A stretch of 64,000 nt of DNA from assembly GCA_016432485.1 (NCBI GenBank), contig CP066691.1, forward strand, positions 388,709 to 452,708, read 5' to 3'. Below, piece by piece: positions 914-52,403 of this stretch (its first letter is position 1; each line of letters starts with the position of its first letter). The position numbers were made by a program, and so were the translations under genes. Source of the stretch: Candidatus Niyogibacteria bacterium (lineage in GTDB: Bacteria; Patescibacteriota; Minisyncoccia; HO2-45-28). A model generated the notes under the pieces. The model ran no database searches and was not told where the DNA came from. It saw only the letters and a program-made list of their open reading frames with translations.

Positions 914-1681
914 CTACGGCCTTTCGGCCGGGTTATAGCGCCTTACGAGTATTTCAATATTTTTGGGCTCCTCGGTGATTGCCGTTTTGGGCCAGGAGAA
1001 AAAAACGGCTCTTTCGGCACTACCCCCTATTTCATCAACATTGGTAAGACTCGCGCCGATTGCTTTTCCTACATCATCATATAAAATCGCGGAAATCTGA
1101 ATATTCTTTATCGCGAAAATATCGTTATTGCGTAAAACCGCGCTTAGTCGGGGCTGCGGCAAAAGCGAGAAATCACGGGAAACCGTAATAATGTTTGTCG
1201 GAGAATATTCGGCAAAGCGCCACTTGACCGGGTCAATTTCAACCAAAGCCCTCACCGGAATACGCTCTCCCGTTGCGAATGTGGGGTCTAATATTAAAAA
1301 TTTTTCGTTCGGATTTATAAAAGTGGAGCCCTCTTTAAGGCCAATGACGATATTTTGTCCATCATAAATTTTCATGCGGTAAGTAAATTTGTCGGAGGCG
1401 GCCGAATTGTGGGTATTTTCAATGAGTGTGGCGACTTCGTAAAAACCGCCCGCTAATTTAAAAAGGCGGGTCCATAAAACTACGGGCTGGGTGAGATTTT
1501 CAAGACACGGCTTGCAGGGGCCGCCGCAATCCGCTTTTTCTTCTCCTTGATTTTTTTTATTGTCAAAACAAGTCGCTTCGGGTGTTACTTGAAAAGCAAT
1601 ATAAATGATTATTGCCAAAGGAATAATAATCAAAACGCCAAGATAAAAAAGCTGTTTTTTAAACCGCCAAGCTAATGCCAT
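914..1681 (-). CDS. hypothetical membrane-anchored protein (N-terminal TM, Cys-rich CGGPCKPC segment)
   Basis: 255-aa ORF with a hydrophobic N-terminus. No recognisable catalytic motif. Confidence 0.4.
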   Translation of the reverse strand: MALAWRFKKQLFYLGVLIIIPLAIIIYIAFQVTPEATCFDNKKNQGEEKADCGGPCKPCLENLTQPVVLWTRLFKLAGGFYEVATLIENTHNSAASDKFTYRMKIYDGQNIVIGLKEGSTFINPNEKFLILDPTFATGERIPVRALVEIDPVKWRFAEYSPTNIITVSRDFSLLPQPRLSAVLRNNDIFAIKNIQISAILYDDVGKAIGASLTNVDEIGGSAERAVFFSWPKTAITEEPKNIEILVRRYNPAERP

Positions 1682-1766
1682 ATATATTGAATATAAATGA
1701 AAAAGGCGGCCTCGGCAAAATTTGCCAAGACCGCCTATGATTCCCGAGCCTCATTTGCGCGGAGGC

Positions 1767-1967
1767 CTACGTTCGCACCTTCTGAAAAAACTCCGCCGCG
1801 CGACAGACGCGATACCCCGGAAAAATCTCGATTTCAATCATCTGGCGGCCTGGCAGAAGATTTTGGACTCCAAGAACCAGAAACTTTTGTCCGCGGACGA
1901 TCCCCTCCTCGATGTTGTCGCTGACAACAATGACAAGATCATGCTTTTGAAATTCCGATTTTGTCAT
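1767..1967 (-). CDS. small hypothetical protein
   Basis: 66-aa ORF preceded on the minus strand by AGGAGGATGTAAAAAATG, a strong SD at correct spacing. Confidence 0.35.
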   Translation of the reverse strand: MTKSEFQKHDLVIVVSDNIEEGIVRGQKFLVLGVQNLLPGRQMIEIEIFPGYRVCRAAEFFQKVRT

Positions 1968-2238
1968 TTTTTACATCCTCCTGCTCACGGGTTTAAAGAA
2001 CTTGCTTTCTCCGAAACCCTGCGCTTCGGAGCTCCACCCAACGCGCCATTACTTCTGACAAGAGCTAAGCTCTTGCCAAAATGATGCGCTCGGTGGAAAG
2101 GGAATCCGGATTGGACGGATTCCCGAACTCGCTCTCGGTTTTTTTGTTTTTTTACGTCAGAACATCACGCTCTCCTTTCTTTGTCCGGCTCATGAAGAGC
2201 CGCTGGATGGTTCGCGATGGTCCGCGTCAGAACTTTTT

Positions 2239-2496
2239 TTAGCGCCGTAAGAAAAACGATACGTAAAAGTATACGCAGGCGGCAAAGGAGCTGAACGAGA
2301 TCCCCGCCAAAACGGCAAAGAGCATTTTGTGCTCAGTGGGAACAAGGTAAATTGCCGACAACACTCCTGCCAAAGACAGAATGGCCAGAAAAACTATCGA
2401 GACGGCTAAGGCACAACCCCAAAATCCCATCTTTATATTCCTGATGCCCCCGGGGGATATATCCCTGTAAGATGACATGATTTTCATTTTTGTCAT
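2239..2496 (-). CDS. small hypothetical membrane protein
   Basis: 85-aa ORF with two hydrophobic stretches. Confidence 0.3.
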   Translation of the reverse strand: MTKMKIMSSYRDISPGGIRNIKMGFWGCALAVSIVFLAILSLAGVLSAIYLVPTEHKMLFAVLAGISFSSFAACVYFYVSFFLRR

Positions 2497-2680
2497 ACCT
2501 CCTTTTTTTGTGGATTTTACATCTGCTCCAAGAACAGCGAAGCTCCAAGGGCGCTTTAGAAAGGTACTTAATACTACTATCTAATAGTAGCACCTTATAA
2601 ATAAAAAGTCAAGTTAATCGGGAAGGATTCTTCCTCTGTTTCTAAAATCGGATAATCCGGCCCAGCCGGATTATGCCGCA

Positions 2681-3067
2681 TTATGCCGCGGCCTTGCGCC
2701 ATCTTTTTTCCATTTCATTCGCCGCAGCCTGTTCGGCAACAGAACGCAGGAAAAAAGATTTAGCCCTTAAACGCATTACGATCGCCTCATCTGATTCTTT
2801 TTTTGCTGCTTCCCATATATCAAGACTTCTGCTTTCTATTTCTTCCACATCTTCAGCGTCCACGTCATCTGACAACTCATTTACAATTTGCAACATTACC
2901 GTAGCAGATATCGGAACCTCTATGCCCAAAACAAGATTATGAGCCGCCTCGGCTTTTTCCGTAAAAGACAAATCTTCTTTAGACATAATTTCTTTAAATA
3001 CCGACAATAATTCTTCGTCTTTATTCTCCTCTGCTTCTTCTATATGAGTTAGGGATATTTTTTCCAT
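2681..3067 (-). CDS. acidic hypothetical protein
   Basis: 128-aa ORF rich in Glu/Asp. No known motif recognised. Confidence 0.4.
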   Translation of the reverse strand: MEKISLTHIEEAEENKDEELLSVFKEIMSKEDLSFTEKAEAAHNLVLGIEVPISATVMLQIVNELSDDVDAEDVEEIESRSLDIWEAAKKESDEAIVMRLRAKSFFLRSVAEQAAANEMEKRWRKAAA

Positions 3068-3221
3068 ATTAAAATTAAATTAACGCCGTCAAATTATATA
3101 ATTCCATAGTAATGCCTCTCGGATAAAACACAACCGCGCCGCGTAAAAATAGCGTAAAATAAGAAAATGAAAAAGCCGCCGCGTTGCCGCGACGGCTCCT
3201 CTCCTTTTTGGAGAGTCGTTT

Positions 3222-3653
3222 CTACTGCGCGCCCTCCACCATCCTGATGACCTCGTAGATGGCATTATTGAGAGCCGCCACTTCATCGTTGATGGCGCCC
3301 GCGGCCGCGCTTACGGAAACCCGGCCCCTATGCTTCAGGATGATCCATCCCGAAGCATAGTAGTTAAAGAGCTTATTCTCCATCGGACCCCTTGAAAGAA
3401 GAGTTGTCCTTCTTTCAAAAGAGATGTCTCCGGAGGTGACGCCCAGTTTCGCAAGCTTCTTGTAAAAATCGCGGAGGGCCCACGCATCCACATACTCCCC
3501 GTACGCCGTGATAGACAATCTCTCAAATATGACAGCTGTCACGGGGAGATTTTTGTCCAAGGCCACGGTCTCTCCGAAGGTCTTGGTCGCGACCGAGGCC
3601 AAAAAGGAGAACACCAATCCGATGAGAAACATCACCAAAAACGCCTTCTTCAT
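3222..3653 (-). CDS. secreted hypothetical protein
   Basis: 143 aa with signal-peptide-like N-terminus MKKAFLVMFLIGLVFSFLASVA. Confidence 0.45.
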   Translation of the reverse strand: MKKAFLVMFLIGLVFSFLASVATKTFGETVALDKNLPVTAVIFERLSITAYGEYVDAWALRDFYKKLAKLGVTSGDISFERRTTLLSRGPMENKLFNYYASGWIILKHRGRVSVSAAAGAINDEVAALNNAIYEVIRMVEGAQ

Positions 3654-3998
3654 CTTTCTTCCTCCTGAGTCAAGATTCTGCTTGGGTTCTTGGCCTTCAA
3701 AAACCCCTCATTTTCCAACTCTAATTATACTCCTATTTTAGTATTTTGTCAATAGCAGCCAAGCGCAAATTTTACCCTTAAAACTGCCCGTAGAACCGCC
3801 CAAGACACTCTGTATCGGCGGCTGCCTATCCCGCACTAAAATTGAATCCTGTGAGCTGGCGATTAGCTGCTTTCCCCCCAAAGGGGTATCACCCCGACAC
3901 CAGACGTTTCGCGTCGGTGCGGGGCACAGTCGGCACTACGATGTTTCGCCACACCACACTTCTTACGATCGTAAGAAGTGTGGTAGAATGGTTTTATA

Positions 3999-4523
3999 AT
4001 GAAAATCCCTGTGACCGACAAATTTTTATGGAAAATATATGACCTTATAGAAACGACCGAAGATGTTGTCGATTTTGTCGGACCAAGAACTATGTCCGAA
4101 GCCGTTTACCCTGATACAAGACGACTAAGACTCGAGTACCAAAAAGAAAAAGCCAGAAGAAGCTTTGCGGAATTTATTCGCTATCTTGGAGAAAAAGGAT
4201 ATATAAACATAAAAGCTCTTGAGGCGACAAGGGGATTTATTTTAACCCCAAAAGGAATCACAAAAGCTATTCGCGCAAAAAGAAAATTTCAAAAAAGGCG
4301 CAGAAGAAAAGATGGGCTTTGGATTATGGTTGTTTTTGATATTTCGGAAAAAAACAGGTTGGCAAGAGACGGTTTTCGCGTCAACCTGGCAGATTTAGGC
4401 TACACACAATTTCAAAAAAGCGTTTGGGTATGTCCTTATGACACATACAAAGAAACAGAAGAAGCAATAAGATTTTATAAAATTACTTCTTGCGTAAAAA
4501 TGTTTTTGATAAAAGAAATCTAA
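3999..4523 (+). CDS. short PaaX-like protein: winged HTH plus Cas2-like-fold middle domain (copy A)
   Basis: 174 aa. wHTH segment FAEFIRYLGEKGYINIKALEATRGFILTPKG resembles PaaX N-domain. WIMVVFDISEKNRLARDGFRVNLADLGYTQFQKSVWVCP resembles the PaaX middle / Cas2 beta1-alpha1-beta2 pattern. Paralog of 46855..47382. Confidence 0.6.
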   Translation: MKIPVTDKFLWKIYDLIETTEDVVDFVGPRTMSEAVYPDTRRLRLEYQKEKARRSFAEFIRYLGEKGYINIKALEATRGFILTPKGITKAIRAKRKFQKRRRRKDGLWIMVVFDISEKNRLARDGFRVNLADLGYTQFQKSVWVCPYDTYKETEEAIRFYKITSCVKMFLIKEI

Positions 4524-4779: not shown

Positions 4780-4892
4780 TCTTCAAGTTGGCGACTGCCT
4801 ACTCTCCCCTTGCGAGTACCATCGGCACTACGACGTTTTACGACCTTGTTCGGAATGGAAAAGGGTAGTTCCATCGCGTCAAGTCACCAACT
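4780..4892 (-). rRNA. rrf: 5S rRNA
   Basis: Minus-strand sequence CCGAACAAGGUCGUAAAACGUCGUAGUGCCGAUGGUACUCGCAAGGGGAGAGUAGGCAGUCGCC matches conserved 5S blocks (CCGAAC, GCCGAUGGUA, GAGAGUAGG). Confidence 0.85.
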
Positions 4893-5242: not shown

Positions 5243-5944
5243 CAATACTCAACTATTACTAATTGTTTGGACTATACCATCACCCCGCAACTGCGGGGGA
5301 CCGACGTGTTATCCGCCAATTTGGCGAATCTGGCTCAACCGAGCCAAGTCTCTACGGGGTCAGTACACGCTTAATTCTTTTTTTTGAGTAATTTAACTCT
5401 CTATATCTATCAACAAGTTTCAGTAGTCGTGAAAAATCGCTATCATTTTTCACGTCTTTTTTAACTCGCAAAATGTCCAGCATTAATTCCAACTGCTCTT
5501 TTTTAAGTCTTACATATGGCCTAACGCTGGCAAGAAAATCTTTTATATCATCAACCTTGTTTATGGTATATTCGATTATTCCATCTTTGCGATTCCTTAC
5601 TATACCGTAATTTATCAGAGAATATACTCGTTCAAAATTTTTACGATCTTTTGCTGACTGAAAAAATACAACGTATGGCGCGATTTGGAATCCGTAACGA
5701 TAAGTTGGATTCGGTTTCGCGCGCACGTAAACACTTCCATCGCCATCTAAAAATCCGGCGATGTAAGCTTTTTCGGTCGTTGAAAGATGTTTAAGCATAT
5801 ACGACTTCCCTCGGTATTATCCTAGCATACGACAGGTTGTTATTCAATGTGTATAACTAGGACTTCACCGATATGAGTCGGTTTTTCGATCCCGCTCGCG
5901 CGGGAAAGCCGCCGTGTGTTCTCAATGTTTTAAGGTTCTCTTTG
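5243..5944 (-). mobile_element. group I intron in 23S at the E. coli-equivalent L2593 site (I-CreI site)
   Basis: Exon junction reconstructs ...GGGUUCAAACCGU | CGUGAGACAGG... (E. coli AACGU|CGUGAGACAG, A2602 region). Intron begins after an exon U and ends with G. It contains a LAGLIDADG ORF in the rRNA orientation. Confidence 0.8.
5352..5798 (-). CDS. LAGLIDADG homing endonuclease (single-motif, I-CreI-like size)
   Basis: 148 aa containing the YIAGFLDGDGSVYV LAGLIDADG motif. Lies inside the 23S intron on the same strand. Confidence 0.85.
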   Translation of the reverse strand: MLKHLSTTEKAYIAGFLDGDGSVYVRAKPNPTYRYGFQIAPYVVFFQSAKDRKNFERVYSLINYGIVRNRKDGIIEYTINKVDDIKDFLASVRPYVRLKKEQLELMLDILRVKKDVKNDSDFSRLLKLVDRYRELNYSKKRIKRVLTP

Positions 5945-8095
5945 ACGGTTTGAACCCAGCTCGCGTATCTTTTTAATCGGCGAACAGCCGAACCCTTGGC
6001 AGCTTCTTCACCGCCAGGATAAGATGAGCCGACATCGAGGTGCCGAACACCGCCGTCGCTGTGGACGCTCGGGCGGTACTAGCCTGTTATCCCCGGAGTA
6101 GCTTTTATCCGTTGAGCTTTCGCGGCATCTAATGCCAACGATCGGATCACTACGCTCTGCTTTCGCACCTGCTCGGCATGTCCGCCTCGCAGTCAAGCCG
6201 GCTTATGGCGTTGCCCTATCGCTCCGATTTCCATCCGGAGCTAGCCGACCTTAATAGACCCCTCCATTACTCTTTAGGAGGGAAGTGCCCCACTTAAACT
6301 GCCCGCCAGATACTGTTCCCCGCGGTTTTTGCCCTCAAGGTTAGAATATAAGCGACTGAAGATGGGTATTTCACTGGCGGCTCCGTGTCATCCGAAAACA
6401 ACACTTCAAAGCCTCCCCACTATGCTACGCATCAGAAGCTTAAACCCAATATCAAGCTACAGTAAAGCTTCCGGGGTCTTTTCGTCTAACTGCAGGTAGC
6501 CGGCATCTTTACCGGCATTGTATTTTCACCGGGCTCCTCTCCGAGACAGTCCCCCAGTCGTTGCGCCTTTCGTGCACGTCTGAACTTACCAGACAAGGAA
6601 TTACGCTACTTTAACACGATTATAGTTATCGCGGACATTGACGAGGGCTTCGGTCGGTCAGCCAGACTAGTTAACTAGTAAACTAGCAAACTAGCAAGAC
6701 CGCCAACGTTAACCTTCTCGCATTGGTCAGGCGTCACCCCCTATACATCCTCTTACGAGTTCGCAGGGAGCTGTGTTTTTGGTAAACAGTCGCCAGGGGT
6801 ACTTTTGTTGCAGCCCCGCTCTTGCCCCGCAATTGCGGGGTGAACGGGGCAACTCTTATTGCTAACTTACGAGTGCTTTTTTGCCGAGTTCCTTGGAGAG
6901 GAATCACCCGTTCGCCTTGCTCTACTCGAGCCACCCACCTGTGTCGGTTTACGGTACGGTCCCCGCGCTTATGATTTTAGAAGTTTTTCTAGGAAGGCTC
7001 TTAAAGAAAATCCCTCCCGCCGTAGCGGAAAGTTCTTCTGCGGTATGAACTTTGCCTTGCGGCCGCTCTCCGGATTTTCCTGGAGAACAGCTCTTGCCAC
7101 AGAAACGCAAATCCAATAATGCGCTCTCTTTTATTTCCTCCGTCACTCCGTCAAAAAGCGAGGGGGCGCCGGAATATTAACCGGCTGTCCATCAGCTGCG
7201 GCTTTCGCCATTGCCTTAGGACCGGCTAACCCTTGGTTGATCACCATTGCCAAGGAAACCTTGGGTTTTCGGCGGGCCCGGATCTCACGGGCCTTGTGGT
7301 TACTTGTGCCAACATTCTCACTTCTCTACACTCCAGTCCGGCTCACGCCATAACCTTCACAGCATAGAGAATGCTCTCCTACCTCGCCAACGCAAAGCAT
7401 TGGCGACCCAATCTTCGGTACTTTGCTTAGCCCCGATTATCTTCGGCGCGAAATCTCTTAACGAGTGAGCTGTTACGCACTCTTTAAAGGATGGCTGCTT
7501 CTAAGCCAACCTCCTCGCTATCTGAGAAACCTCACCACCTTACTTGCACTTAGCAAAGATTTAGGGACCTTAGATGTGGGTTAGGGCTGTTTCCCTTTTG
7601 ACCAGTGGAGCTTAGCCCCCACGGTCTAACTGCCTCAATACGCTTCTGGTATTCGGAGTTTGGTAGGTGAGACGAGGTTTCCCCCTGTTCGCACCTTCCA
7701 GTAGCTCTACCCCCAGAAGTAATTTAAGACGCTAGCCCAAAAGCTATTTCGGAGAGAACCAGCTATTACCGAGTTCGATTAGCTTTTCACTCCTTGCCAC
7801 AACTCATCCGATGACGTTGAACGATCAACCAGTTCGGGCCTCCCTCCATCTTTCGACGGAGTTCACCCTGGTCATGGCAAGCTCACCCGGCTTCGGGTCT
7901 AATTCGTACTACCTGCAAACTAGCTTATAGCTGTTAGCTGTCAGCTGATAGAAGTTGCCCCCTAAAAACTGTAAGCTAAAAGCTAAAAGCTGAAATGCAA
8001 CGCGCTATTAACACTTGGTTTCCCTTTGATTGCGTCCCGTAGGACTTAGTCAAGCGATACGAATTAACTCGTTGGCTCATTCTTCAATAGGCACA

Positions 8096-8240
8096 CCGTC
8101 ACCCTCACACCTACTTTGGCATCGTTGCATCGTGTTTTCGTTATTCTTGTCACATATCCACTACAGCCAACGAAACATTCATTCCGCTGACTTACGTTTG
8201 TGATGCAACAAAAACACAATGCCAAAGTAGGTGTGGGGGC
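8096..8240. repeat. ~145-bp structured palindromic element inserted in 23S (copy 1)
   Basis: Terminal inverted ends CCCTCACACCTACTTTGGCAT...ATGCCAAAGTAGGTGTGGGGG. About 90% identical to 9091..9232. Confidence 0.7.
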
Positions 8241-8297
8241 TCCGATTCCTTGTAAGCATATGGTTTCAGGTACTATTTCACCGCCCTCAACGGGCTG

Positions 8298-8337
<40 letters not shown>

Positions 8338-9090
8338 TTGAAACGTATTTAGCCTTGGGAGTTAGTTCTCCCGGATTCCCCCGACCCATTCATGCGTCGA
8401 GGTACTCAAGTAATCCTTCGACTTCGCTCAGGATATAACACCCTGAGTTTAATCGAAGGGTAACGATTCAGAGAGCATAAGACCGTTTTTGAATACGGGG
8501 CTATTACCCACTATGGCCCGGCTTTCCAGCCGATTTTCCTAACGAAGTCTTAATTTTATTAACTCTCCTTGGGATTGCTCCCAAACGAACCGTACTTACA
8601 ACCCCTAACTAGTTGACTAGTAAACTAGTTCACTAGTTAAGTTTGGGCTGTTCCCTTTTCGCTCGCCGCTACTAGGGGAATTTGCACATCTCGCTTGCGC
8701 TCGATGTAATGACTAATTCCTAATTTCTAATTCCTAAAATAATTAGAAATTAGACATTAGATAATTAGAAATTGCATATCGAACGTAAGTGAGATATGTG
8801 TTGTTTTCTTTTCCTCCAGGTACTGAAATGTTTTACTTCCCTGGGTGCACTCTCCGATTAAAATCGGAGTAATTTGGTTTTGCCAAATTGGGTTTCCCCA
8901 TTCGGACATCCCCGGTTCAAAGGTTGCTCGCCACCTCCCCGAGGCTTATCGCAGGCACGCCACGTCCTTCATCGTCGTTTCAAACCAAGGCATCCACCAT
9001 ACGCCCTTATGTTCTGTCCCGGTGTTTTGATATTTATCCCGCCATTCTTTGTACCACTTACAAAGAAAACGGGATTTTTAGACTTATTTT

Positions 9091-12680: not shown

Positions 12681-12766
12681 AATTTTACGCGATGCAAATC
12701 TACTAATGCATACTAATTATACCAATAGATTCGTATAATTAGAATCAATTCGTATATTGGTATCGA

Positions 12767-21629: not shown

Positions 21630-22382
21630 TTAATTCCCCTCCAAGTCCAAGTCCGAACTCGGTTCGGATTCCGAACCGAGTTCGGACTTGGGCCGGTTTA
21701 TCCATTCACTTATAAATTTCCAATAATCCTCAACGCTGTTATCAAAATACTCCATCACCATACTTTTATCAATAAGTGACGCAAATTTTGTTCCTTGTTC
21801 AAGGTAATCAGGCAGACTAGACCACTTGTACTCCTTTAAAAACTTTTCCGCCCCCACTTTATCCTCAACATATCCCCTCTCTTTCCACATCGGGTCAAAT
21901 AATTCTAAAGGATTCAGATGAATATATCGGCTTACATGCGTAAAATGTTTGTCTCCGCCTATATGCACCGCCTTAAATTTGCCGCTAAAGAGCGGCCCCG
22001 AGCGTTTATATTTAGTATTAAAGTACAAAGCGTGGCTTACCTGAAGACGGTGCAGAAAAGCGCTTATGCCTCCTTCTTTCAGTTCTTTCACCAAGAGATG
22101 AAAATGATTTGGCATAAAACACCAGCTTAATATCTCAACCATTGGTTCCTTGTCGGAATCCGTCAGAGTCGGAACCGAGTTCTGCATTTGACGCGCTGGC
22201 TTGCCGGAGGCATCGTTCAAATAGAATAAAATAGTTGCAAATCTACGTCTATCAAAGTCATCTTCAAATATAGTGCGCTTTTCCACGCCTCTGGTAAAAA
22301 TGTGGTATATTTCCCCCTCTACAAAATCAATATCACGCATTGCCCTAAACTCTAACACACTGTCAGAACTCGGTTCTGACAA
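21630..22382 (-). CDS. REP-associated tyrosine transposase (IS200/IS605-like Y1 HuH transposase, RAYT)
   Basis: HuH motif CFMPNHFHLLV and catalytic-Tyr region HVSRYIHLNP. Flanked on both sides by REP palindromes. Confidence 0.7.
   Translation of the reverse strand: MSEPSSDSVLEFRAMRDIDFVEGEIYHIFTRGVEKRTIFEDDFDRRRFATILFYLNDASGKPARQMQNSVPTLTDSDKEPMVEILSWCFMPNHFHLLVKELKEGGISAFLHRLQVSHALYFNTKYKRSGPLFSGKFKAVHIGGDKHFTHVSRYIHLNPLELFDPMWKERGYVEDKVGAEKFLKEYKWSSLPDYLEQGTKFASLIDKSMVMEYFDNSVEDYWKFISEWINRPKSELGSESEPSSDLDLEGN
21641..21694. repeat. REP palindrome (GAACCGAGTTC family), locus 1
   Basis: CCAAGTCCGAACTCGGTTCGGATTCCGAACCGAGTTCGGACTTGG, a near-perfect ~50-bp palindrome. Confidence 0.75.
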
Positions 22383-22409
22383 AACTGTGGATAAGTTGTG
22401 AATATGTCC

Positions 22410-22445
22410 ATCCGAACCGAGTTCGGACTGAACTCGGTTCGGATC
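22410..22445. repeat. REP palindrome, locus 2
   Basis: TCCGAACCGAGTTCGGACTGAACTCGGTTCGGATCG, immediately upstream of the RAYT start. Confidence 0.75.
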
Positions 22446-22452
22446 GAATAAA

Positions 22453-23112
22453 CTATTGGAGCGAATCTAGAAACAATTGGATGTCGCCGGTGGGGTCGGC
22501 GCCGGCGGAAATGCCTTGTTCTAAAACTTCCCTAGCCCTACTTATATCCCCCATTACTTCCCTATAAAATCCGGCCATTTGATAATAAACAAAGCCGTTC
22601 TTGGGCTCGGCTTGAATAGCTTTTGAGAAACTTTCCTCCGCCTTCTGATTATTATGAATGTAATAAGCGTAGAGATCGGCCGAATTTAAAAAAGATGTGG
22701 CTATGTTGGGACGAATAATGCCCGCAAAACTCCACGCTTCAATCGCTCCTTCATAGTCGCCCGCGGACTTTCTCAAAATACCCAATTGAAGCCAACCCTG
22801 CAGATAGTTATAATTACCCTTCAGCATTAAAGAAACCTCCTGTATGTCTAAAATCAGTTGTTGGCGTCTTTCCTTCGAAATACCAACCACAACCTTAATA
22901 GGCCTCTCTAAATCAGGGATATTCTTGTCAATTACGGCAGATTCCGAACCGAGTTCGGCAGCTGCAGAACTCGGTTCGGACTCGGGTTCTGGTTCGAATA
23001 GCGGCGGAGGCAAGGGTAACGGAACTTTCTGGTCGCGCCAGATGAAATATCCGGCCACTGCGACAATAACAAGTAAAAATAAAGGCAAAAGCGGTTTAAA
23101 TTTTAAGTTCAT
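22453..23112 (-). CDS. TPR-repeat protein with N-terminal TM anchor
   Basis: 219 aa. TPR-like helices in the C-terminal half. Linker EPEPESEPSSAAAELGSESAV is encoded by a REP palindrome. Confidence 0.5.
   Translation of the reverse strand: MNLKFKPLLPLFLLVIVAVAGYFIWRDQKVPLPLPPPLFEPEPESEPSSAAAELGSESAVIDKNIPDLERPIKVVVGISKERRQQLILDIQEVSLMLKGNYNYLQGWLQLGILRKSAGDYEGAIEAWSFAGIIRPNIATSFLNSADLYAYYIHNNQKAEESFSKAIQAEPKNGFVYYQMAGFYREVMGDISRAREVLEQGISAGADPTGDIQLFLDSLQ
22942..22998. repeat. REP palindrome, locus 3 (inside coding sequence)
   Basis: TTCCGAACCGAGTTCGGCAGCTGCAGAACTCGGTTCGGACTCGGGTTCTGGTTCGAA. Confidence 0.7.
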
Positions 23113-23160
23113 AAGGAATATTTTAGCATTTGGAAAATTTTGTGCAACCCCCCCTCCTCA

Positions 23161-23203
23161 AAATCCGAACTCGGTTCGGCACGAACCGAGTTCGGAATCG
23201 GAA
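23161..23203. repeat. REP palindrome, locus 4
   Basis: AATCCGAACTCGGTTCGGCACGAACCGAGTTCGGAATCGG. Confidence 0.7.
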
Positions 23204-23206
23204 ATA

Positions 23207-23238
23207 GAAAAACCCCCCGCAACTGCGGGGGGTTTTTC
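23207..23238 (-). terminator. hairpin terminator after the giant gene 23267..26947
   Basis: AAAAACCCCCCGCA-ACT-GCGGGGGGTTTTTCG. Confidence 0.55.
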
Positions 23239-23266
23239 GTAGCCTTAGCTAATCCACAAGGATTGA

Positions 23267-26200
23267 TTAGTTGGGGCTTGTGAAGTACTCGGTGGTCATA
23301 TTCGTTCCCGGCAGGCCAGGAAGGGCATAACCGTTCGTCCAGTCAAGATCATAGATGCTCGCGGACGTTGATGTTGAGCGAGGCGACCAGACCAAGTCAT
23401 TATGCGTACTTTCCTTAGCTGTCGTAGAGGCGGTGAACATATTACCAGCAGTTTCTGACGCTAAATCAGAACCGGTAAACGCAGACGGGTACGCGGCATC
23501 GCCGTCAAGCTGGGCGCTAATTGTTTCAACGCCTGTAGCCGATTCAACATTAGCCACGGTCGCTCTGAAATCAAAGTATCTGGTAATGCCTGAAGGAACA
23601 ACATAAGTGGTTGTGGCATTGCAAGTAACCGTGCCTTTGTCAGGGTAAACTTCAATAACTAATGGGCTGTCATTGGCGCTCGGTGTCTGAGCCGTTTCAG
23701 TAATCGCATTTCGTCCATTGACACAGTTTCCGTAGTTCACTAAACCATCGGTTGTGAAAGAGGAATCAACGGTTGATAGACCGCTGTCGGTGTAGGCATA
23801 CAGGCCGTATGTTGAAGTTGTTGCCGTAACAGAGGATGAACCGATTGTGAAGGTCCACTTGTAGAACGCAACATCTCCGCCGGTTGCGGTAACGCTGAAA
23901 CGATACAGAGTTTTGCCTGACTGGGTTCCGACTGTCAAAGAGTTGTTCGGAACGGCAAGTTTAACAAATGTCGGGTAGGCCTTGTTAATACGGATGCCGG
24001 TAGAAGAAGTGTCGTTGGCGGAAGGCGTAATGTTGCTTCCGGACGCCACACCAACTCCGTAGTTTCCGTTGGTTCCCTCATTGTTGCCGTCATAATCAAC
24101 TTTCAAGAATTCACCTGAAGCAGTGATTGGCCCGCTATTTGTTAGCGCGGAAATGTCTCCTTTTATGATCAGCACTTTAGAGCTGTCTTTAGGAATAACA
24201 AAACCGGTAAGCGCGCTGGATGTCGCGTAGTCAGATGAAGGAAATACCGCTTCACCCACTTGCGTTGAGCCATCCCACAAAGTCACCTTTCGTTCAACAA
24301 GGCTGGTCGGAGAGTTTGAGGCTCCGCCGGTAAGCTGAAGCGCTACTTGTTTGAGCTCAATGTTTTCGTCTGAGGCGCTAAAGCGAATCTGTGAAAGAAT
24401 CACTCCGGTTGAGCCGGCATTTACAAGCTTATATCCCGGGCTTCCGGCATCCAATGCGACAGAAAGGGAACCTCCGGTAGCAATAGTCATTCTTTGTCCA
24501 TCAGAATCAGTGAAGGTCTCATCCACGGTTTGTCCGCTGGTAAGTCCTGTGGCGCCGGTAAAGGTTTCGCCATTATTAAGACCCCAAGCATAAATGGCGC
24601 CGCTTGCGGCAGAACCGGAAACATCACATTTTAAGACGAGCGTTTTTGAAGTTCCTTTGGCAAGAGTAAGTCCTGAACCGTCAAAAGTGAAGCTGGTTGA
24701 AGAACCCTCCGTAGTCGGATTCTTAATGTTTGCCGAGTTAACAACCGTAGAGCCGTCGTACATCTTACAATTGGTAAGGTCGGTTACCGCGCCGGTCGAA
24801 ACCATATCATAGACAACCGGCAAACTGGTGATACGAATGTCTTCACCAGAAGCAGTTACATCAAGAATGTAGTTGGCAAAGACAAATTGCGAAGCTCCCT
24901 GAATTACGGTTTGCGCGATTGGAATGCTTGAAACCGAAACCGTCAACGCTCCGGATTTGACTGTCATCAAGCTGAAAGTCAAAGGCGAGGACGGACTCGG
25001 AGTAATGGTGTTGCCGGTAACCTGTCCGGTAACAGTGCCCCAAGCCGAAGGAGTGGTGGATGCCTGAAATGTATCATCGTTTTCCAGGTCAGTTCCAATC
25101 TTGCCTTTCAAAATGTATGAGTGGACTCCGACTGGGAAAGTAACGGTGTCAGAGAATTGAATTTCACCTGTTGCGGTACCCGCGGCACCTGAAGCATTGC
25201 CTTCCGTGGCAACTCCATCAACTGGTCCGGCAATAACCGCTCCATTTTCGTCATACAAGGAAACACTGGTGATGTCGTCCGCGTCTTCTCCGGACGCCTC
25301 GTTTTCAAGGTGAACGTTGAAGTGCATTGCCGCAACAGAAATTGGCTCGCCTCTCACATCAACCGTGAAAGCGCCCAACGGCTGGTTTGCCAAGTTAATG
25401 GCAACGTTCTGGGCAGGCGCCAAAACAGAGTTGGTGGAAACAGTCATACTTCCCGTTGAAATCGTAACCTGGGCGGCGTCATAGTACGGGTCGTCCGCGT
25501 TGTTAAAGTCCGCGCCGTCAGTTGCGGCGGCCGCGGAATCAAGCGGAGGAGTTAATCCGTATCCATAGAGCGCGCCGACAAACGCGACATCAGTTCGTTT
25601 CTGAATATCAAAGTCAATATTTCGGTTTGAACCGCCTGAAATATCGCCTTTAATTGATATTTCTTTGAAGAATCCTTTAGGCATCAAAAGCCCCTTCCCG
25701 CTGTTTTCAGTAAATACAGTGGTGTAATACTTTCCGTCGGCGCTCACTGTCGGGTCATAAACGCTTCCATTGGCATGAACCTTGACATTTGCCAAGTCAT
25801 CCTTGGAAGCCGAGCCCGACTGGTACCACCTGATGTATTTAATGTAAACATCTTCGGCAGAACCGGCGGTGAATTTAACTGACGAGAAAGTATAACCCGT
25901 TGTCCCAACTTCTTTGGTCTGGGATGAACCCGGGTCTAATGAACCGCGAGCAGGACCAGGAACCGTTCCAATGGTTAATGTTTCGTTAACCGTGTGGCCC
26001 GCGCCGGTAATCGGGAATGTGCCGTTAACAGCGGCGTTCGCGGCAACAGCGCTTATCGAAAGATACGCAATCTGTCCGCCGTATCCGCCACCCGATGTTT
26101 GAGCGTTTCCGCCGACAACCATCGTTTTGGTTTGACCGGCTTTAACAACAAAGTCCTCGGTCAAAGTTGCCTGATGAACGGAATTCAATGTTTTTACAAG

Positions 26201-26947
26201 ACCAACCTGCGTTCCCTGATCATCCATCAAGATGAGTCCAGCAAACGCGGCGTCCTGTGCAAGACCGGTTCTTTCAATCGTGAGTGAATCCACCGTTACA
26301 TCTCCGTCAGAAGACGCGGTGAAATTAACAACCGTGAATGGAACGCGCGTGGAGTTAACCGGAAACAAACTTGCTACCGGCTGTGTGCCGGCAGTAACCG
26401 TCAATCCGCTTCCAGCCGGAACAACGACCGGAGTGGTTGGGGTTGTTGGAGTTGTCGGCGTAGTCGGAGTTGTTACAACCGTTCCGGCAACCGCGTTATA
26501 TTTGGCTCGCGAAATTGAACCAAAATATCCGACAGCCGGAGACACTCCGTTAGCTGCCTGCCAAGCGGCAACCGCCGACTGTGTTACAGAACCAAAGTAT
26601 CCGGTTGCGCCACCCGAAAATGTGAAGTGGCCGGTACCGGTCAGATAGTTCTGCAAGCAAGTTACATCATCGCCTTTAGAACCCACTGTCAGGTCGTTGG
26701 CGAAACTGCAAGCTCCGGCAGAAACTGTGCCGCTTGTAGCTTGACCGCGCAATGACAAGTTAACGTTATTGACCGTGGTTTGGTCAGCTCCAAACGACTG
26801 CAACAGCGAAATAATTGACTGGATCTGAGCCTCGGTTAAAGCCGCGCTCGCGACCGGAACCAAAGCGGAACCCGCCAATAAAATCGCAGTTGACACAGAA
26901 ACAATGGCCGAAGCCACTTTTTTGTGTTTTGCAATTAATTTACTCAT
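23267..26947 (-). CDS. giant cell-surface protein with peptidoglycan-binding domain, TPTTP linker and Ig-like beta-rich repeats
   Basis: 1226 aa. N-terminal signal/TM. PG_binding_1-like block GSKGDDVTCLQNYLTGTGHF...GYFGSVTQSAVAAWQAANGV, then (TPT)n linker, then Thr/Ser/Gly-rich beta repeats. Confidence 0.55.
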   Translation of the reverse strand: MSKLIAKHKKVASAIVSVSTAILLAGSALVPVASAALTEAQIQSIISLLQSFGADQTTVNNVNLSLRGQATSGTVSAGACSFANDLTVGSKGDDVTCLQNYLTGTGHFTFSGGATGYFGSVTQSAVAAWQAANGVSPAVGYFGSISRAKYNAVAGTVVTTPTTPTTPTTPTTPVVVPAGSGLTVTAGTQPVASLFPVNSTRVPFTVVNFTASSDGDVTVDSLTIERTGLAQDAAFAGLILMDDQGTQVGLVKTLNSVHQATLTEDFVVKAGQTKTMVVGGNAQTSGGGYGGQIAYLSISAVAANAAVNGTFPITGAGHTVNETLTIGTVPGPARGSLDPGSSQTKEVGTTGYTFSSVKFTAGSAEDVYIKYIRWYQSGSASKDDLANVKVHANGSVYDPTVSADGKYYTTVFTENSGKGLLMPKGFFKEISIKGDISGGSNRNIDFDIQKRTDVAFVGALYGYGLTPPLDSAAAATDGADFNNADDPYYDAAQVTISTGSMTVSTNSVLAPAQNVAINLANQPLGAFTVDVRGEPISVAAMHFNVHLENEASGEDADDITSVSLYDENGAVIAGPVDGVATEGNASGAAGTATGEIQFSDTVTFPVGVHSYILKGKIGTDLENDDTFQASTTPSAWGTVTGQVTGNTITPSPSSPLTFSLMTVKSGALTVSVSSIPIAQTVIQGASQFVFANYILDVTASGEDIRITSLPVVYDMVSTGAVTDLTNCKMYDGSTVVNSANIKNPTTEGSSTSFTFDGSGLTLAKGTSKTLVLKCDVSGSAASGAIYAWGLNNGETFTGATGLTSGQTVDETFTDSDGQRMTIATGGSLSVALDAGSPGYKLVNAGSTGVILSQIRFSASDENIELKQVALQLTGGASNSPTSLVERKVTLWDGSTQVGEAVFPSSDYATSSALTGFVIPKDSSKVLIIKGDISALTNSGPITASGEFLKVDYDGNNEGTNGNYGVGVASGSNITPSANDTSSTGIRINKAYPTFVKLAVPNNSLTVGTQSGKTLYRFSVTATGGDVAFYKWTFTIGSSSVTATTSTYGLYAYTDSGLSTVDSSFTTDGLVNYGNCVNGRNAITETAQTPSANDSPLVIEVYPDKGTVTCNATTTYVVPSGITRYFDFRATVANVESATGVETISAQLDGDAAYPSAFTGSDLASETAGNMFTASTTAKESTHNDLVWSPRSTSTSASIYDLDWTNGYALPGLPGTNMTTEYFTSPN

Positions 26948-27429
26948 AAATAAATTTTCATTAATTGATTCTTCTTCATCCCGCGCTAGCGAGATTTCAA
27001 AAAATCTTCAGAGAGTAAATACTTAACCTCGACAAAGTTAAGATTCTCTCTTTTTAAATAATCCAAACTGGTAAACTTTCGGTAAATGAGGCCTATCCTT
27101 ATCAACGTAACCCCGCCAAATGGCGTACGGAATACATTTAATCGACCGGACCAAACCTCAACTTTAAAGCAATTTAATTTTTCTTTCTCAGATCATCAAT
27201 CATTTCAGTCGCGTTATTAAATTATCAAAGTTCTCTATGCGGTCTCTCAAACGAATACGTCAAATCGAGCCATTGTCTGGCTTTGAAATACGCTCTGCAC
27301 CTCAAACAACCTTGCATCCATTTCTGATAATCTGCATTAACTCTTATTATAATTCCCCATTTCAAGCCTGGCAAAATAGCCATATGTGGATAACTTTGGA
27401 AGGCAAAATTGGGGTTTCTTTAGGCTACT

Positions 27430-27459
27430 AAAAAGCCCCCTTCAAGTCAATAAGGGGAC
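27430..27459 (-). terminator. hairpin terminator after 27488..28201
   Basis: Minus strand GTCCCCTTATTGACTTGAAGGGGGC followed by TTTTT. Confidence 0.5.
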
Positions 27460-27487
27460 AAAAAATAAGTATAATATATGTATTGTG

Positions 27488-28201
27488 TCAACCCGCTAAT
27501 TTATATCGGCGCCATCTTTTTTCGCCTTCTTTTAGCAAAAGACCTTCGCCGGCCATTCCAACCAAATCCCGCTGTAAAGTTTTCTCGCCTATCCGCCCCC
27601 TAAACACGCCTGCCAGCTCCCCTACGCTAACCCAATCTTTCTCTTTTATAAAAGAGATTATTTCCTCTCGTCTTTCACCATTACCCTCCTTCACCTCATT
27701 ATTCTCATTATTCCCATTATCCTTTTTATTTTCGGTTATTTCAGTTATTTTATGGTTTTCAAGAGTTAAGCTTTGATTATCTTGTTCTTGTTGTCCATTA
27801 GATATTTGTCCAATAGATTTATGTCCGATATGCCCAACAGCCGACGGCTCTGGCAAAATATCATATCTTTTCTCAATTAGATGGTCAGATAGACTTTTGT
27901 ATTCTCTTTTTAACACCTGAAAATTGGCATCTGATATAAAAGACCCTGAAGCCGCAAGCTCAAAAACCCTGACCGATTGATTTATTTTTTCAGTTACCCG
28001 GTCAATCTGCCGCACCCTGTCATTGGGAGGAGCGGTTTTTACTTTTAAAAGCGATTCAAAAATTTCCAAACCCTCGCGGCGCAAAAGCCATTTTAAGGGC
28101 TCCGAATCCGAAAAAAGATCGGTCACCCGATAAAGCGCCTCGGTCAATTTTTGCGAGCGTTCGTAAATTTGTTCCAGGTGACCATTTTTTTCGCCAGACA
28201 T
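27488..28201 (-). CDS. hypothetical protein with C-terminal winged-helix DNA-binding domain
   Basis: 237 aa. C-terminus IISFIKEKDWVSVGELAGVFRGRIGEKTLQRDLVGMAGEGLLLK is wHTH-like. Middle is low complexity. Confidence 0.4.
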   Translation of the reverse strand: MSGEKNGHLEQIYERSQKLTEALYRVTDLFSDSEPLKWLLRREGLEIFESLLKVKTAPPNDRVRQIDRVTEKINQSVRVFELAASGSFISDANFQVLKREYKSLSDHLIEKRYDILPEPSAVGHIGHKSIGQISNGQQEQDNQSLTLENHKITEITENKKDNGNNENNEVKEGNGERREEIISFIKEKDWVSVGELAGVFRGRIGEKTLQRDLVGMAGEGLLLKEGEKRWRRYKLAG

Positions 28202-28246
28202 TGTTTATAATTCTAAACGCCCCAAAATTTTTTGCAAATCCAAAAC

Positions 28247-28286
28247 GTGCAGAACCGAGTTCTGCGTCAGAACTCGGTTCTGCACG
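28247..28286. repeat. REP-variant palindrome, locus 5
   Basis: GTGCAGAACCGAGTTCTGCGTCAGAACTCGGTTCTGCAC. Confidence 0.65.
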
Positions 28287-29831: not shown

Positions 29832-29897
29832 ATTATTTTTTAAAATCTACTAATTTCTATCATTAACATTCATCAACGGCCGTTGATGAATGTTAAC

Positions 29898-45959: not shown

Positions 45960-46032
45960 AAATAAATATTCTAACTTATTTCAAGATAAATAAAAATACG
46001 GCGACCCCACGGCCGTCGCATATTTTTATCGT

Positions 46033-46671
46033 TTAGTTGCCGATAAGAACCTTTCCTGAAACGGCGTTCTGGTATGTATAAAAAACCTCGCGAAGCGCCG
46101 ATTCATAACCAGCTTTTACTTGAAACCCTACGACGAGAAAAAATTTTCCCGATTCAAAATCCCGAATCAATTCTTCTTTGTTTGTGAAGTGGGAGAAAAA
46201 CTCTTTGTATATATCAAGTTCCTGGACAAGAGTTTTTTTGGGTATTTTTTTATCTCTTGGATGTCCCCAGATTGTCTCAAGGCACTGCCTTGGTTCCCAG
46301 AGGGCGAAGCCCGTTCCTTTGTCCACCGACATTCCTTTGGATTCATAAAAGAACTTTTCGGCAGGCGTAAGGCTTGTCATCTCAAGTCGTCCTGAAAAGG
46401 GAGTTCTGCGGTAGGTTTGAAATCCCGGACATTGCGGAAAATCTGGAAAACCGGCAATCTCAATTTTCAAGAAGGGTCTACCCTCCTTGATAAACACGGT
46501 TACTTTATCGCCATCCCAATAGTGATAAAGGCCGATGATGCTCGCACCCACGTTACTGGCAACGCTCAACTCAACAAACAAAAGGGCCGCTGCAAACAGC
46601 AGAAGCATTTTTTTCATTCGCTTCACCTCCTTCTTAAGCGGAGAAGGCGCCTTCCTTGGACGCGGCTCCAC
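46033..46671 (-). CDS. secreted hypothetical protein
   Basis: Signal peptide MKKMLLLFAAALLFVELSVASNVGAS. Confidence 0.4.
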   Translation of the reverse strand: MEPRPRKAPSPLKKEVKRMKKMLLLFAAALLFVELSVASNVGASIIGLYHYWDGDKVTVFIKEGRPFLKIEIAGFPDFPQCPGFQTYRRTPFSGRLEMTSLTPAEKFFYESKGMSVDKGTGFALWEPRQCLETIWGHPRDKKIPKKTLVQELDIYKEFFSHFTNKEELIRDFESGKFFLVVGFQVKAGYESALREVFYTYQNAVSGKVLIGN

Positions 46672-46796
46672 ATAGAGCCGGCCCGCAGAAGCGAGCTGAA
46701 AAGAACTACGACCGTATTATAATCGCCCGCACCAAAATGTCAAACCAAACCTCGCCCAAACACGGAACACCAAATATAAAACAGAGCGTATAATCT

Positions 46797-46830
46797 AATA
46801 CAGGCGATCGCTTTTATTAGATTATTGGTG
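46797..46830. repeat. GCGATCGC-centred palindrome upstream of PaaX-like copy B
   Basis: AATACAGGCGATCGCTTTTATTAGATTATT. Repeated at 47380..47412. Confidence 0.7.
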
Positions 46831-46854
46831 TAAAATCATATATAATTAAACATT

Positions 46855-47382
46855 ATGCGGCTACCTATTACGGACGAATTTTTGTGGAAATTGTATGATT
46901 TTACTGAAGAGCTTGATAAAACATATGACTTTTTCGCCCCGCGCACACCATACGAAATAGTCTATCCTGAAATACATCGCTTAAAACGCGAGTATCAAAG
47001 ATCAAGCGCGCGAACAGGTTTCAGTCAATTTGTACAAAATCTGCAAAACAGAGGATATATTCAAGTAAAGGCGCTCAAAGGAACAAGGGGCGTTATTCTC
47101 ACGCCGAAAGGCGCCGAAAGAGCATTGAGAATAAAGTTAAAATTCGTAAAAAAGAAAAAGCGAAAAGATAATAAATGGATTATGATTATTTTCGATATAC
47201 CAGAAAAACAAAGACGCGCAAGAGAATTGTTCAGAAACGCGCTGATAAATCTTGGGTATCAAAAACTACAAAAAAGCGTTTGGGTGTGCCCTTACGACGT
47301 GCACAAAGAAACAGAAGAAGCGATACGGGCATACCGCTCCATTCCTTACGTCAAACTTTTTATTATAGAAGAGATAATCTAA
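46855..47382 (+). CDS. short PaaX-like protein: winged HTH plus Cas2-like-fold middle domain (copy B)
   Basis: 175 aa. FVQNLQNRGYIQVKALKGTRGVILTPKG (cf. PaaX FVRTALFRLNKEGWLDVSRIGRRSFYSLSDKG). KDNKWIMIIFDIPEKQRRARELFRNALINLGYQKLQKSVWVCP (cf. PaaX WDGKWLLLLSEGL...LIWQGFGALAPSLMASP). Confidence 0.6.
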   Translation: MRLPITDEFLWKLYDFTEELDKTYDFFAPRTPYEIVYPEIHRLKREYQRSSARTGFSQFVQNLQNRGYIQVKALKGTRGVILTPKGAERALRIKLKFVKKKKRKDNKWIMIIFDIPEKQRRARELFRNALINLGYQKLQKSVWVCPYDVHKETEEAIRAYRSIPYVKLFIIEEII

Positions 47383-47412
47383 TACGGGCGATCGCTTTTA
47401 TTAGATTATTAA
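47380..47412. repeat. GCGATCGC-centred palindrome downstream of PaaX-like copy B
   Basis: TAATACGGGCGATCGCTTTTATTAGATTATT. Direct repeat of 46797..46830. Confidence 0.7.
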
Positions 47413-47430
47413 TATTTTCGGCCCAATCCC

Positions 47431-49116: not shown

Positions 49117-49124
49117 TGAACGGC

Positions 49125-51446: not shown

Positions 51447-51518
51447 ATTCAAAATAGTATCATAAGCCAATTTGACTGGCAAAACAACCTTATGCACAAT
51501 AAAGTAATGGGACGATAT

Positions 51519-51719
51519 ATGACAATCAAAGAGGCAGCTAAATATCTGGGAGTCTCCCCGCTGACCTTGCGCAATTGGGATAAAAAGGGGCAACTGGTGG
51601 CCATAAGGCACCCGGTCAACAATTATCGCCTGTATACTTTTTCGGACATAGAAAAATTTCTAAAAAGCTTTGAGGGCAGAAGGCCCAGAAAATTGAAAGT
51701 CCGACTCATAGAGGATTAA
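51519..51719 (+). CDS. small HTH_17 (excisionase/MerR-type) DNA-binding protein
   Basis: MTIKEAAKYLGVSPLTLRNWDKKGQL helix-turn-helix. Confidence 0.5.
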   Translation: MTIKEAAKYLGVSPLTLRNWDKKGQLVAIRHPVNNYRLYTFSDIEKFLKSFEGRRPRKLKVRLIED

Positions 51720-51761
51720 TCCTTTGGCAAGCCATTAACCCTTCGACAAGCTCAGGGTAAA

Positions 51762-51790
51762 GAAAACACCCCGCAGCTGCGGGGTGTTTT
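51762..51790. terminator. bidirectional hairpin terminator
   Basis: AAAACACCCCGCAGCTGCGGGGTGTTTT. Confidence 0.6.
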
Positions 51791-51792
51791 CG

Positions 51793-52248: not shown

Positions 52249-52257
52249 ACTTATTTA

Positions 52258-52286: not shown

Positions 52287-52403
52287 ATAAAACAAAAAAT
52301 TGGGTAATGCGTTGAGTAATGCACCGACTTAACATATCCTAACGGCCGTTAGGATATGTTAAGCGGATTTTAAAACAAAAAACTCGCCCGTCTTAAACTA
52401 AAT

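Follow-up and report, generated by a model that had tools for sequence, protein, structure and literature searches.

A hairpin-delimited Y1/HUH transposase gene of Candidatus Niyogibacteria as a probable low-copy relative of REP/RAYT systems

Results

A Y1/HUH gene and its hairpins

We analyzed a 64-kb stretch of a Candidatus Niyogibacteria genome (here called the window), which carries on its minus strand, at 21630-22340, a gene for a Y1/HUH protein of class 2 (RAYT/TIRYT-like; RAYT stands for tyrosine transposase associated with repetitive extragenic palindromes, REPs) and, in and around this gene, a family of short hairpins. An earlier note on this DNA had proposed a REP/RAYT system with a 250-aa protein containing HuH and YIHLNP motifs. 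Both motifs are present, with the HuH at residues 79-81 and the catalytic tyrosine at residue 139, whereas the length has to be corrected: 250 aa corresponds to the mechanical open reading frame (ORF) 21630-22382, which begins with TTG, and the deposited gene model (P0001, 100% identity) begins with ATG 22340 and encodes 236 aa. This protein is publicly annotated as a "transposase" of a Candidatus Niyogibacteria metagenome-assembled genome (MAG), a source that agrees with the earlier impression of a genome of the candidate phyla radiation (CPR). The description of the DNA as AT-rich does not hold, as its GC content is 39-52%, about 45% on average.

The repeat was searched for as the 11-mer GAACTCGGTTC on both strands, allowing at most one mismatch. 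We detected 12 copies in the window, all of them exact and all located at 21655-28280, within 6.6 kb of the Y1 gene, while the other 57 kb contained none. In dinucleotide-preserving shuffles, the mean number of copies was 0.95 and the maximum 4, so that 12 was reached in 0 of 100 shuffles; similarly, the 15-mer CCGAACTCGGTTCGG matches the window 12 times against 0.12 expected. The copies are arranged around the single Y1 gene as five inverted doublets plus two single copies, and their units, with stems of 6-9 bp and a loop of 3 nt, have the dimensions of the short stem-loop palindromes known as REPs. When folded as single-stranded DNA, the five doublets reach -18.5 to -27.6 kcal/mol, with z-scores of -6.9 to -9.7. 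The five palindromic doublets are those already recognized, at the places assigned to them, and the two single copies (22361-22381 and 22170-22184) are added here.

Four of these sites belong to the Y1 gene and its borders. The doublet at its 3' boundary (21647-21691) is a perfect 22+22 nt palindrome within the last 20 codons, where it encodes ...SELGSESEPSSD... and folds with -27.6 kcal/mol (z -8.3). Inside the gene, 24 codons before the HuH, the in-frame copy CAGAACTCGGTTCCG (22170-22184) encodes QNSVP in a variable loop. As the deposited start is ATG 22340, the single hairpin GTCAGAAC-CGA-GTTCTGAC (22361-22381, 9-bp stem) sits 21-41 nt upstream of the start codon, and the doublet at the 5' boundary (22407-22447) occupies the 112-nt spacer separating a TPR-like gene (22453-23112) from the Y1 gene. 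The three satellite doublets lie farther away. The one at 22940-22983 is translated in frame (EPSSAAAELGS) as part of the variable N-terminal linker of the TPR-like gene, the one at 23164-23196 is intergenic, between the TPR-like gene and a gene for a 1226-aa protein, and the third, a CAGAAC variant (28246-28286), lies between a Band_7 gene and a gene for a 237-aa helix-turn-helix (HTH)-like protein. The doublet at 22940-22983 was considered as a clean insertion, and this was rejected on the alignment of TPR-like orthologues, in which the linker is variable in all species. A promoter/terminator scan gave no signal at the window hairpins.

The protein is a class 2 Y1/HUH enzyme

Its sequence and predicted structure place the protein among the Y1/HUH enzymes of the RAYT type (class 2 TnpAY1). 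It passes the Pfam model Y1_Tnp (PF01797), as the earlier note had led us to expect, with 39.9 bits against a cut-off of 23. The AlphaFold (AF2) model (pLDDT 89, pTM 0.86) shows a Y1 core followed by a helical C-terminal domain. Its confidence is low only for residues 41-67 and 217-236, and these two segments are the ones that hairpin DNA encodes. The best PDB match of this model by Foldseek is Escherichia coli TnpAREP bound to a REP hairpin (4ER8; E 3.5e-6, TM-score 0.68 normalized to the target), followed by the TnpA proteins of IS608 and ISDra2 (E about 1e-4). A sequence profile also ranked 4er8 first in the PDB (E 6e-4), and single-sequence phmmer found no match there.

The alignment of 42 relatives revealed that the HuH histidines (H79 and H81), Y139 and H141/N143 of the YIHLNP motif, and S174/S175 of the WSS motif are invariant in all 42; in the LFQG motif, F is invariant and G nearly so. 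The consensus motifs of the family are MPNHFHLL, LFQG, YIHLNP, and WSS, with protein lengths of 211-272 aa, and the Y...NP signature, YIHLNP in the window protein, is found in 79 of 84 family members, with Y..NQ in 2 of the 84. In none of the 42 members did Pfam detect a C-terminal HTH (Bac_DnaA_C, HTH_23, or HTH_28). The sole NCBIfam match of the window protein is REP_Tyr_transpos (NF047646), at 40.3 bits, below the 80-bit equivalog cut-off, and the same model is matched by 42 of the 42 aligned relatives, always below its threshold. The proposed RAYT identity therefore stands as far as the class, the Y---NP signature and the best structural match (4ER8) are concerned, and fails at the equivalog cut-off (40 vs 80 bits) and in its motifs, which are those of subclass 2.1.

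TnpAY1 subclass 2.1, as defined by Quentin et al. 2018, is characterized by NH[YF]H, FQ, Y[IV]HLNP, and SS motifs and a median length of about 238 aa (PMC6006769). It equals the group 1 RAYTs of Bertels and largely the TIRYTs of Di Nocera et al. 2013 (PMC3733652). The sequence of the window protein (NHFH, FQ, YIHLNP, WSS, about 236 aa) fits this subclass and not the REP-associated ones, an assignment made with the published motifs (Table 1 of PMC6006769) and not with the hidden Markov models of that paper. A profile search of 1.84 billion cluster representatives yielded 2,039 at E <= 1e-30, that is, about 2,000 clusters at 50% identity, and the named members come from Niyogibacteria, Zambryskibacteria, Paceibacterota, Parcubacteria, and similar groups.

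Cognate hairpins bracket most sampled genes of the family

We compared 90 related loci; a metagenome scan supplied 80 loci at 35-67% identity, in addition to those of the closest homologues described below. A gene was scored as bracketed when its start and its stop each had close by a perfect hairpin (stem 6 bp or longer) containing a shared 10-mer. Since these calls were automated and missed imperfect hairpins (for example at L155, L160, and L179), the fractions reported here are conservative. Hairpin bracketing is a family-wide design: most sampled members are bracketed, 57 of the 75 evaluable genes against 3 of 105 size-matched control ORFs from the same loci. Usually the 5' copy is located 30-60 nt upstream of the start, and the 3' copy falls between 30 nt ahead of the stop codon and 20 nt past it.

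A copy within the gene was observed in 26 of the 80 metagenome loci, about a third, at 15-36 codons before the HuH, and all 29 intragenic copies upstream of the HuH are placed 21-40 codons ahead of it. In the fold, this place corresponds to the loop that connects the first helix to the second strand. Relatives of the window gene carry theirs at the position equivalent to 22170-22184. Across loci this hairpin is read in all three reading frames and the encoded peptides are unrelated, which places the constraint on the DNA and not on the protein. In a neighbor-joining tree, the three-site arrangement marks one large clade that includes Niyogibacteria, the other clade has mostly the two end copies only, and related proteins carry related hairpin tops.

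The hairpins differ from canonical REPs at their foot. Of 215 hairpin copies in the family, 7 have a GT[AG]G foot, for which the background rate is 6.9%, and none has a CGTC foot. The earlier statement that the gene is flanked on both sides by REPs is thus right in that its own palindromes stand on both sides, and has to be given up for REPs of the canonical type.

Palindromes at fixed positions could also be regulatory, acting as operators, attenuators, or RNA structures, with the Y1 protein mainly an autoregulator that binds hairpins or palindromes and moves no DNA. The positions themselves (some 30-60 nt ahead of the start, within the coding loop, and at the stop) would suit such a role, as would the near-perfect, odd-centered form of the palindromes, which is typical of binding sites for dimeric proteins, and the location of the gene in a co-directional cluster. 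Yet the catalytic HuH and Tyr are invariant, no terminator or promoter signal accompanies the hairpins, and the stems, which are 94-97% Watson-Crick, have no wobble-pair bias as a sign of RNA-level selection, with 22 G-T against 21 A-C mismatches. In addition, as described below, satellite sites that do not adjoin the gene change their hairpin in concert with it, and the unit of homology ends at the hairpins. We therefore consider a purely regulatory role very unlikely.

In Niyogibacteria the sites are stable and the hairpin sequence changes

Seven relatives share the gene order HTH237, 1226, TPR, Y1, 168, and LTD1258, the last encoding an LTD/beta-helix protein of about 1260 aa. Their Y1 proteins are 54-75% identical to that of the window and the neighboring proteins 50-75%, except for one partial match of 157 aa at 96%. 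This conserved synteny at 54-75% identity indicates that the Y1 gene has been resident at one site through considerable divergence, with its catalytic residues intact.

At corresponding positions (5' flank, coding loop, and 3' end), each of these genomes has a different hairpin. The hairpin of the window is CCGAAC-TCG-GTTCGG. It is replaced by TGGTTAGAAC-TCG-GTTCTAACCA in L222 and L225 (Y1 identity to the window 75% and 71%), by ACAAGAGC-CGT-GCTCTTGT in L142 (67%), by CAAGAGC-TTA-GCTCTTG in L138 (61%), by CGGATACC-A-GGTATCCG in L136 (57%), and by TGGACAGC-TCGGAGT-GCTGTCCA in L131 (54%). Satellite positions are kept as well: in L222, the closest relative, a cluster of the L222 hairpin lies between the gene for the 1226-aa protein and the TPR-like gene, the counterpart of window site 23164-23196, and in L136 the hairpin of that locus is found between the Band_7 and HTH-like genes, the counterpart of 28246-28286. 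Copies within one genome differ from each other by 0-2 bases, and hairpins at orthologous sites of different genomes are unrelated or alike only at the top of the stem. Likeness within genomes together with unlikeness between orthologous sites indicates concerted evolution, which requires copying among the sites.

Strains that share an identical Y1 protein (P0008; L131, L132, L134, and L135 versus L133) differ directly after the 3' hairpin, where some have a 46-aa and a 203-aa ORF and another a single 156-aa ORF. This difference may reflect a rearrangement beside the hairpin.

Hairpin copies are probably few and mostly local

We counted the hairpins of the 60 metagenome loci for which a hairpin family had been accepted. 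Of these copies, 178 are no more than 300 nt away from the gene, against only 16 in the 416 kb of flanking DNA surveyed; at a distance of 6-10 kb, relatives have 1 copy in 114 kb. By our calculation, the empty 57 kb of the window means fewer than about 44 further sites in the 837 kb of the contig (836,981 bp), at 95% confidence and if the sites are evenly spread. The sparse flanks of the relatives and the empty part of the window together point to at most tens of copies per genome, and the hairpin copy number is probably low.

Dispersal does occur in the family. A scan of genome contigs with the degenerate doublet pattern GAACYSRGTTCN{3,12}GAACYSRGTTC returned at least 120 rows of unrelated palindromes, and among the matches listed was L096, a contig of MAG CAYJVP01, which is labeled uncultured Gammaproteobacteria and has 55% GC. 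At 1206-1975 it encodes a 227-aa member of the Y1 family (36% identity) flanked by tandem TCCGGAACC(C/G)GGTTCCGGA hairpins, and arrays of these hairpins recur on three other contigs of the same MAG (L035, L057, and L083). The presence of arrays on four contigs indicates REP-like dispersal, of which L096 is the sole clear case for cognate hairpins among the loci analyzed here.

Two further observations concern the distribution of hairpins. L168 has the largest local satellite group: at about 920-4170, which is 2.5-5.8 kb upstream of its Y1 gene, its hairpin TTAGGAGC-CTC-GCTCCTAA occurs five more times, for the most part in doublets. The 11-mer core was also found, among the matches listed, in GGAACTCGGTTCC-N-GGAACCGAGTTCC hairpins at L024 (5305), L114 (1429), and L124 (4796 and 5591), in Saccharibacteria, Nealsonbacteria, and Lawsonella MAGs; no Y1 homologue was found in the 8-kb stretches around these hairpins, which may have arisen by chance.

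These data bear on the possibility of a canonical REP/RAYT system, in which a domesticated RAYT spreads a high-copy REP/REPIN family through the extragenic space of the whole genome and the cluster in the window is its home REPtron. The layout is REPtron-like, with REPIN-like inverted doublets, TnpAREP is the best structural match, the gene is apparently single-copy and vertically inherited, and L096 is a relative with dispersed arrays. Nevertheless, the hairpin counts in the window and in the flanks of the relatives speak against a high-copy family, 3 of the 7 window sites lie inside ORFs, the hairpins have no GT[AG]G foot, and the protein scores at half the RAYT cut-off with the motifs of subclass 2.1 (PMC6006769). 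A canonical system is in our view unlikely.

In other lineages the unit ends at its hairpins

Several pairs of family members with 65-80% protein identity have unrelated flanks. In these pairs (L174/L202, L207/L210, and L196/L220), the ends of the blastn homology and the outer hairpins are at most 5 nt apart; in L174, for instance, the homology extends over 1638-2433 and the hairpins are at 1643 and 2430. This indicates that the block from hairpin to hairpin, about 0.72-0.81 kb, is a discrete unit that has moved over evolutionary time, with boundaries that are defined by relatives in other lineages, the close relatives of the window all being syntenic.

Insertion-sequence activity, sought as an identical protein in several contexts, was not found for P0001 or P0062, each of which was seen in one genomic context, P0001 on 13 and P0062 on 24 contigs from many samples. 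If the element were an active, autonomous IS200-like insertion sequence, the hairpins would be its left and right subterminal structures and the 0.8-kb unit would still transpose. This reading would agree with the hairpin-gene-hairpin architecture, with homology that ends exactly at the hairpins in other lineages, and with the Y1 fold. It would not explain why seven Niyogibacteria relatives at 54-75% protein identity share one syntenic slot, why the gene has one copy in 64 kb and identical proteins always a single context, or why solo hairpin doublets are located away from the gene; moreover, the protein has Y---NP and not Y---Q, and about 236 aa and not about 150 aa (PMC6006769). We regard this possibility as quite unlikely, and, like the canonical and the regulatory ones, as less likely than a hairpin-delimited element that stays in place in Niyogibacteria.

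Other features of the window

The ribosomal RNA, RNase P, and tRNA genes confirm an ordinary chromosomal context. The match to 23S rRNA (5900-9020) spans 3,121 nt against a model of 2,925 nt and that to RNase P RNA (51789-52250) spans 462 nt against 367 nt, and each may contain an insertion. About 1 kb separates the 5S gene (4786-4891) from the 23S gene, and a 16S gene was not found in the window. An unusually strong AT skew (0.15 to 0.33) extends over about 6 kb at 46000-52000, a region that spans the long minus-strand ORFs 47431-49116 and 49125-51611.

A second gene bracketed by hairpins is a 175-aa ORF on the plus strand (46855-47382) with a PaaX_M/Cas2-like domain (Pfam 74.6 bits). It is flanked by near-identical 37-nt palindromes, ATAATCTAATAC(A/G)GGCGATCGCTTTTATTAGATTATT, at 46790-46826 and 47374-47410, with a weaker third copy near 47045; the palindromes could represent operators or a further small element. 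Several long palindromes, perfect or nearly so, that have no relation to the GAACTCGGTTC family are located at 52328-52363, 3953-3984, 29863-29896, and 12690-12765, one of them being a perfect 36-nt palindrome beside the RNase P gene.

Discussion

Based on these results, we consider it likely that the locus is a hairpin-delimited Y1/HUH element of about 0.8 kb (21647-22447), in which a single-copy class 2 TnpAY1 gene has its own hairpin at both ends and in frame in a disordered coding loop, with a few REPIN-like doublets within 6 kb. The system is best read as a low-copy, non-canonical relative of REP/RAYT, REPtron- or TIRtron-like in its arrangement and vertically inherited in Niyogibacteria. 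Several observations weigh against such an element. The intragenic copy is a weakened hairpin in the window genome (fold z -1.1), and about a quarter of the family loci have no bracket by the strict detector. In relative orientation, the 5' and 3' hairpins follow no single pattern (21 opposite, 14 same), which fits neither a strict IS200 nor a strict REPtron rule. Subclass 2.1, whose motifs fit here, was reported to be without REP-like sequences (PMC6006769). Finally, the concerted change of the hairpins could arise by ordinary gene conversion between nearby repeats, with no activity of the enzyme.

By homology with TnpAREP and the TnpA of IS608, the enzyme of the proposed element would bind its hairpin in single-stranded DNA, for example on the lagging-strand template, and would cut at the foot of the hairpin by means of a metal bound by the HuH and of Tyr139, forming a covalent 5'-phosphotyrosine link before the strand is rejoined. 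Copying or replacement of hairpins by the enzyme, perhaps with gene conversion, would ensure that the hairpins of a genome stay alike and continue to suit the protein, with new ones arising nearby from time to time. In Niyogibacteria, the element has been kept at one chromosomal site through speciation, and in other lineages the hairpin-to-hairpin unit has moved as a block. The conserved intragenic copy suggests that the enzyme may also act on, or bind, its own gene. The data show the fold, the motifs, the link to hairpins, conserved positions with concerted sequence change, and the limits of the unit; binding, cleavage, and hairpin copying, like any benefit to the host, are what we infer.

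Among known systems, the TIRYTs and subclass 2.1 are close in their protein, sharing the NH[YF]H, FQ, and Y[IV]HLNP motifs, the SS motif of the tail, and a length of about 238 aa, and probably also in their low copy number. Flanking repeats that are self-complementary and overlap the gene ends were already known for TIRYT genes (PMC3733652), where they may also occur in dimers, and the genome-wide abundance of the flanking repeat of group 1 is low, about 12 occurrences (PMC5581495). The family described here differs from them in its perfect-hairpin brackets (57/75), in the near absence of the TIRYT motif GGGGWSAS from the gene ends (1 of 84 loci), in a tail with no HTH recognized by Pfam, in a third, in-frame hairpin at a fixed position, and in its CPR host, whose genome is smaller than 1 Mb.

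The canonical REPtrons, such as E. coli TnpAREP/YafM (4ER8) and the Pseudomonas REPIN-RAYT systems, also have a vertically inherited Y1 gene, single-copy as it probably is here, between cognate hairpins, inverted REP doublets, and co-evolution of protein and hairpin, and provide the best structural match. They have GT[AG]G feet and tens to hundreds of dispersed copies, whereas here the foot is missing and a handful of copies are local, and the protein, about 70 aa longer with its helical C-terminal domain, remains below the NCBIfam equivalog cut-off. In subclass 2.4 (Cyanobacteria/Bacteroidetes), in-frame REPs with GT[AG]G feet are found inside tnpAREP (PMC6006769), so that a cognate hairpin in a peripheral, variable region of the enzyme's own coding sequence, with the frame preserved, has a precedent. 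There, however, the insertion separates the HuH motif from the Tyr motif and the REPs are of the long or 'double foot' type, while here the copy is 21-40 codons upstream of the HuH and has no foot motif.

With IS200/IS605 elements (IS608 and ISDra2 TnpA), the family shares the Y1 HUH fold, a gene delimited by terminal or subterminal hairpins, and a hairpin-to-hairpin block that is the unit of homology between unrelated contexts. Those elements have a TnpA of about 150 aa with Y---Q, multiple near-identical copies, asymmetric ends on one strand, and often a tnpB partner, in contrast to the Y---NP protein of about 236 aa, the single copy in 64 kb, and the near-identical end palindromes in mixed orientation seen here. 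No tnpB-like neighbor was present in the examined neighborhoods of the Y1 gene and its relatives.

In the literature searched, we found no description of this family or of any REP/RAYT or TIRYT elements in CPR, of perfect-hairpin bracketing of a subclass 2.1-like protein, of a fixed intragenic hairpin upstream of the HuH, or of stable sites with a changing hairpin sequence. Surveys of RAYT and TnpAY1 proteins were built on complete genomes of cultivated phyla, and tnpAY1 genes outside insertion sequences were reported to favor large genomes (PMC6006769). The annotation "transposase" on these CPR genes conceals what they are. A large family in CPR breaks two generalizations, the preference for large genomes and the absence of hairpins from subclass 2.1.

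A broader proposal, which we put forward tentatively and hold to be possible rather than probable, is that these elements form a Patescibacteria-wide family of about 2,000 clusters of compact Y1/HUH elements, each carrying its recognition hairpin at three places (ahead of the start, in frame at a fixed position before the HuH, and over the stop) and turning these copies over in concert. If this is true, a self-targeting circuit would be implied, in which the enzyme processes or binds its own gene, in autoregulation or programmed self-editing, and some of the smallest bacterial genomes would harbor active machinery for copying and replacing hairpins by way of single-stranded DNA, maintained by vertical descent.

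In conclusion, the family offers a minimal, repeated natural experiment in the co-evolution of protein and hairpin, with constant sites and a lineage-specific hairpin sequence. As the cognate hairpin can be read beside each gene, it is a ready source of orthogonal recognition pairs for HUH-tags and single-stranded DNA. It also provides a tractable system in which to ask whether such genes are selfish, domesticated, or both.

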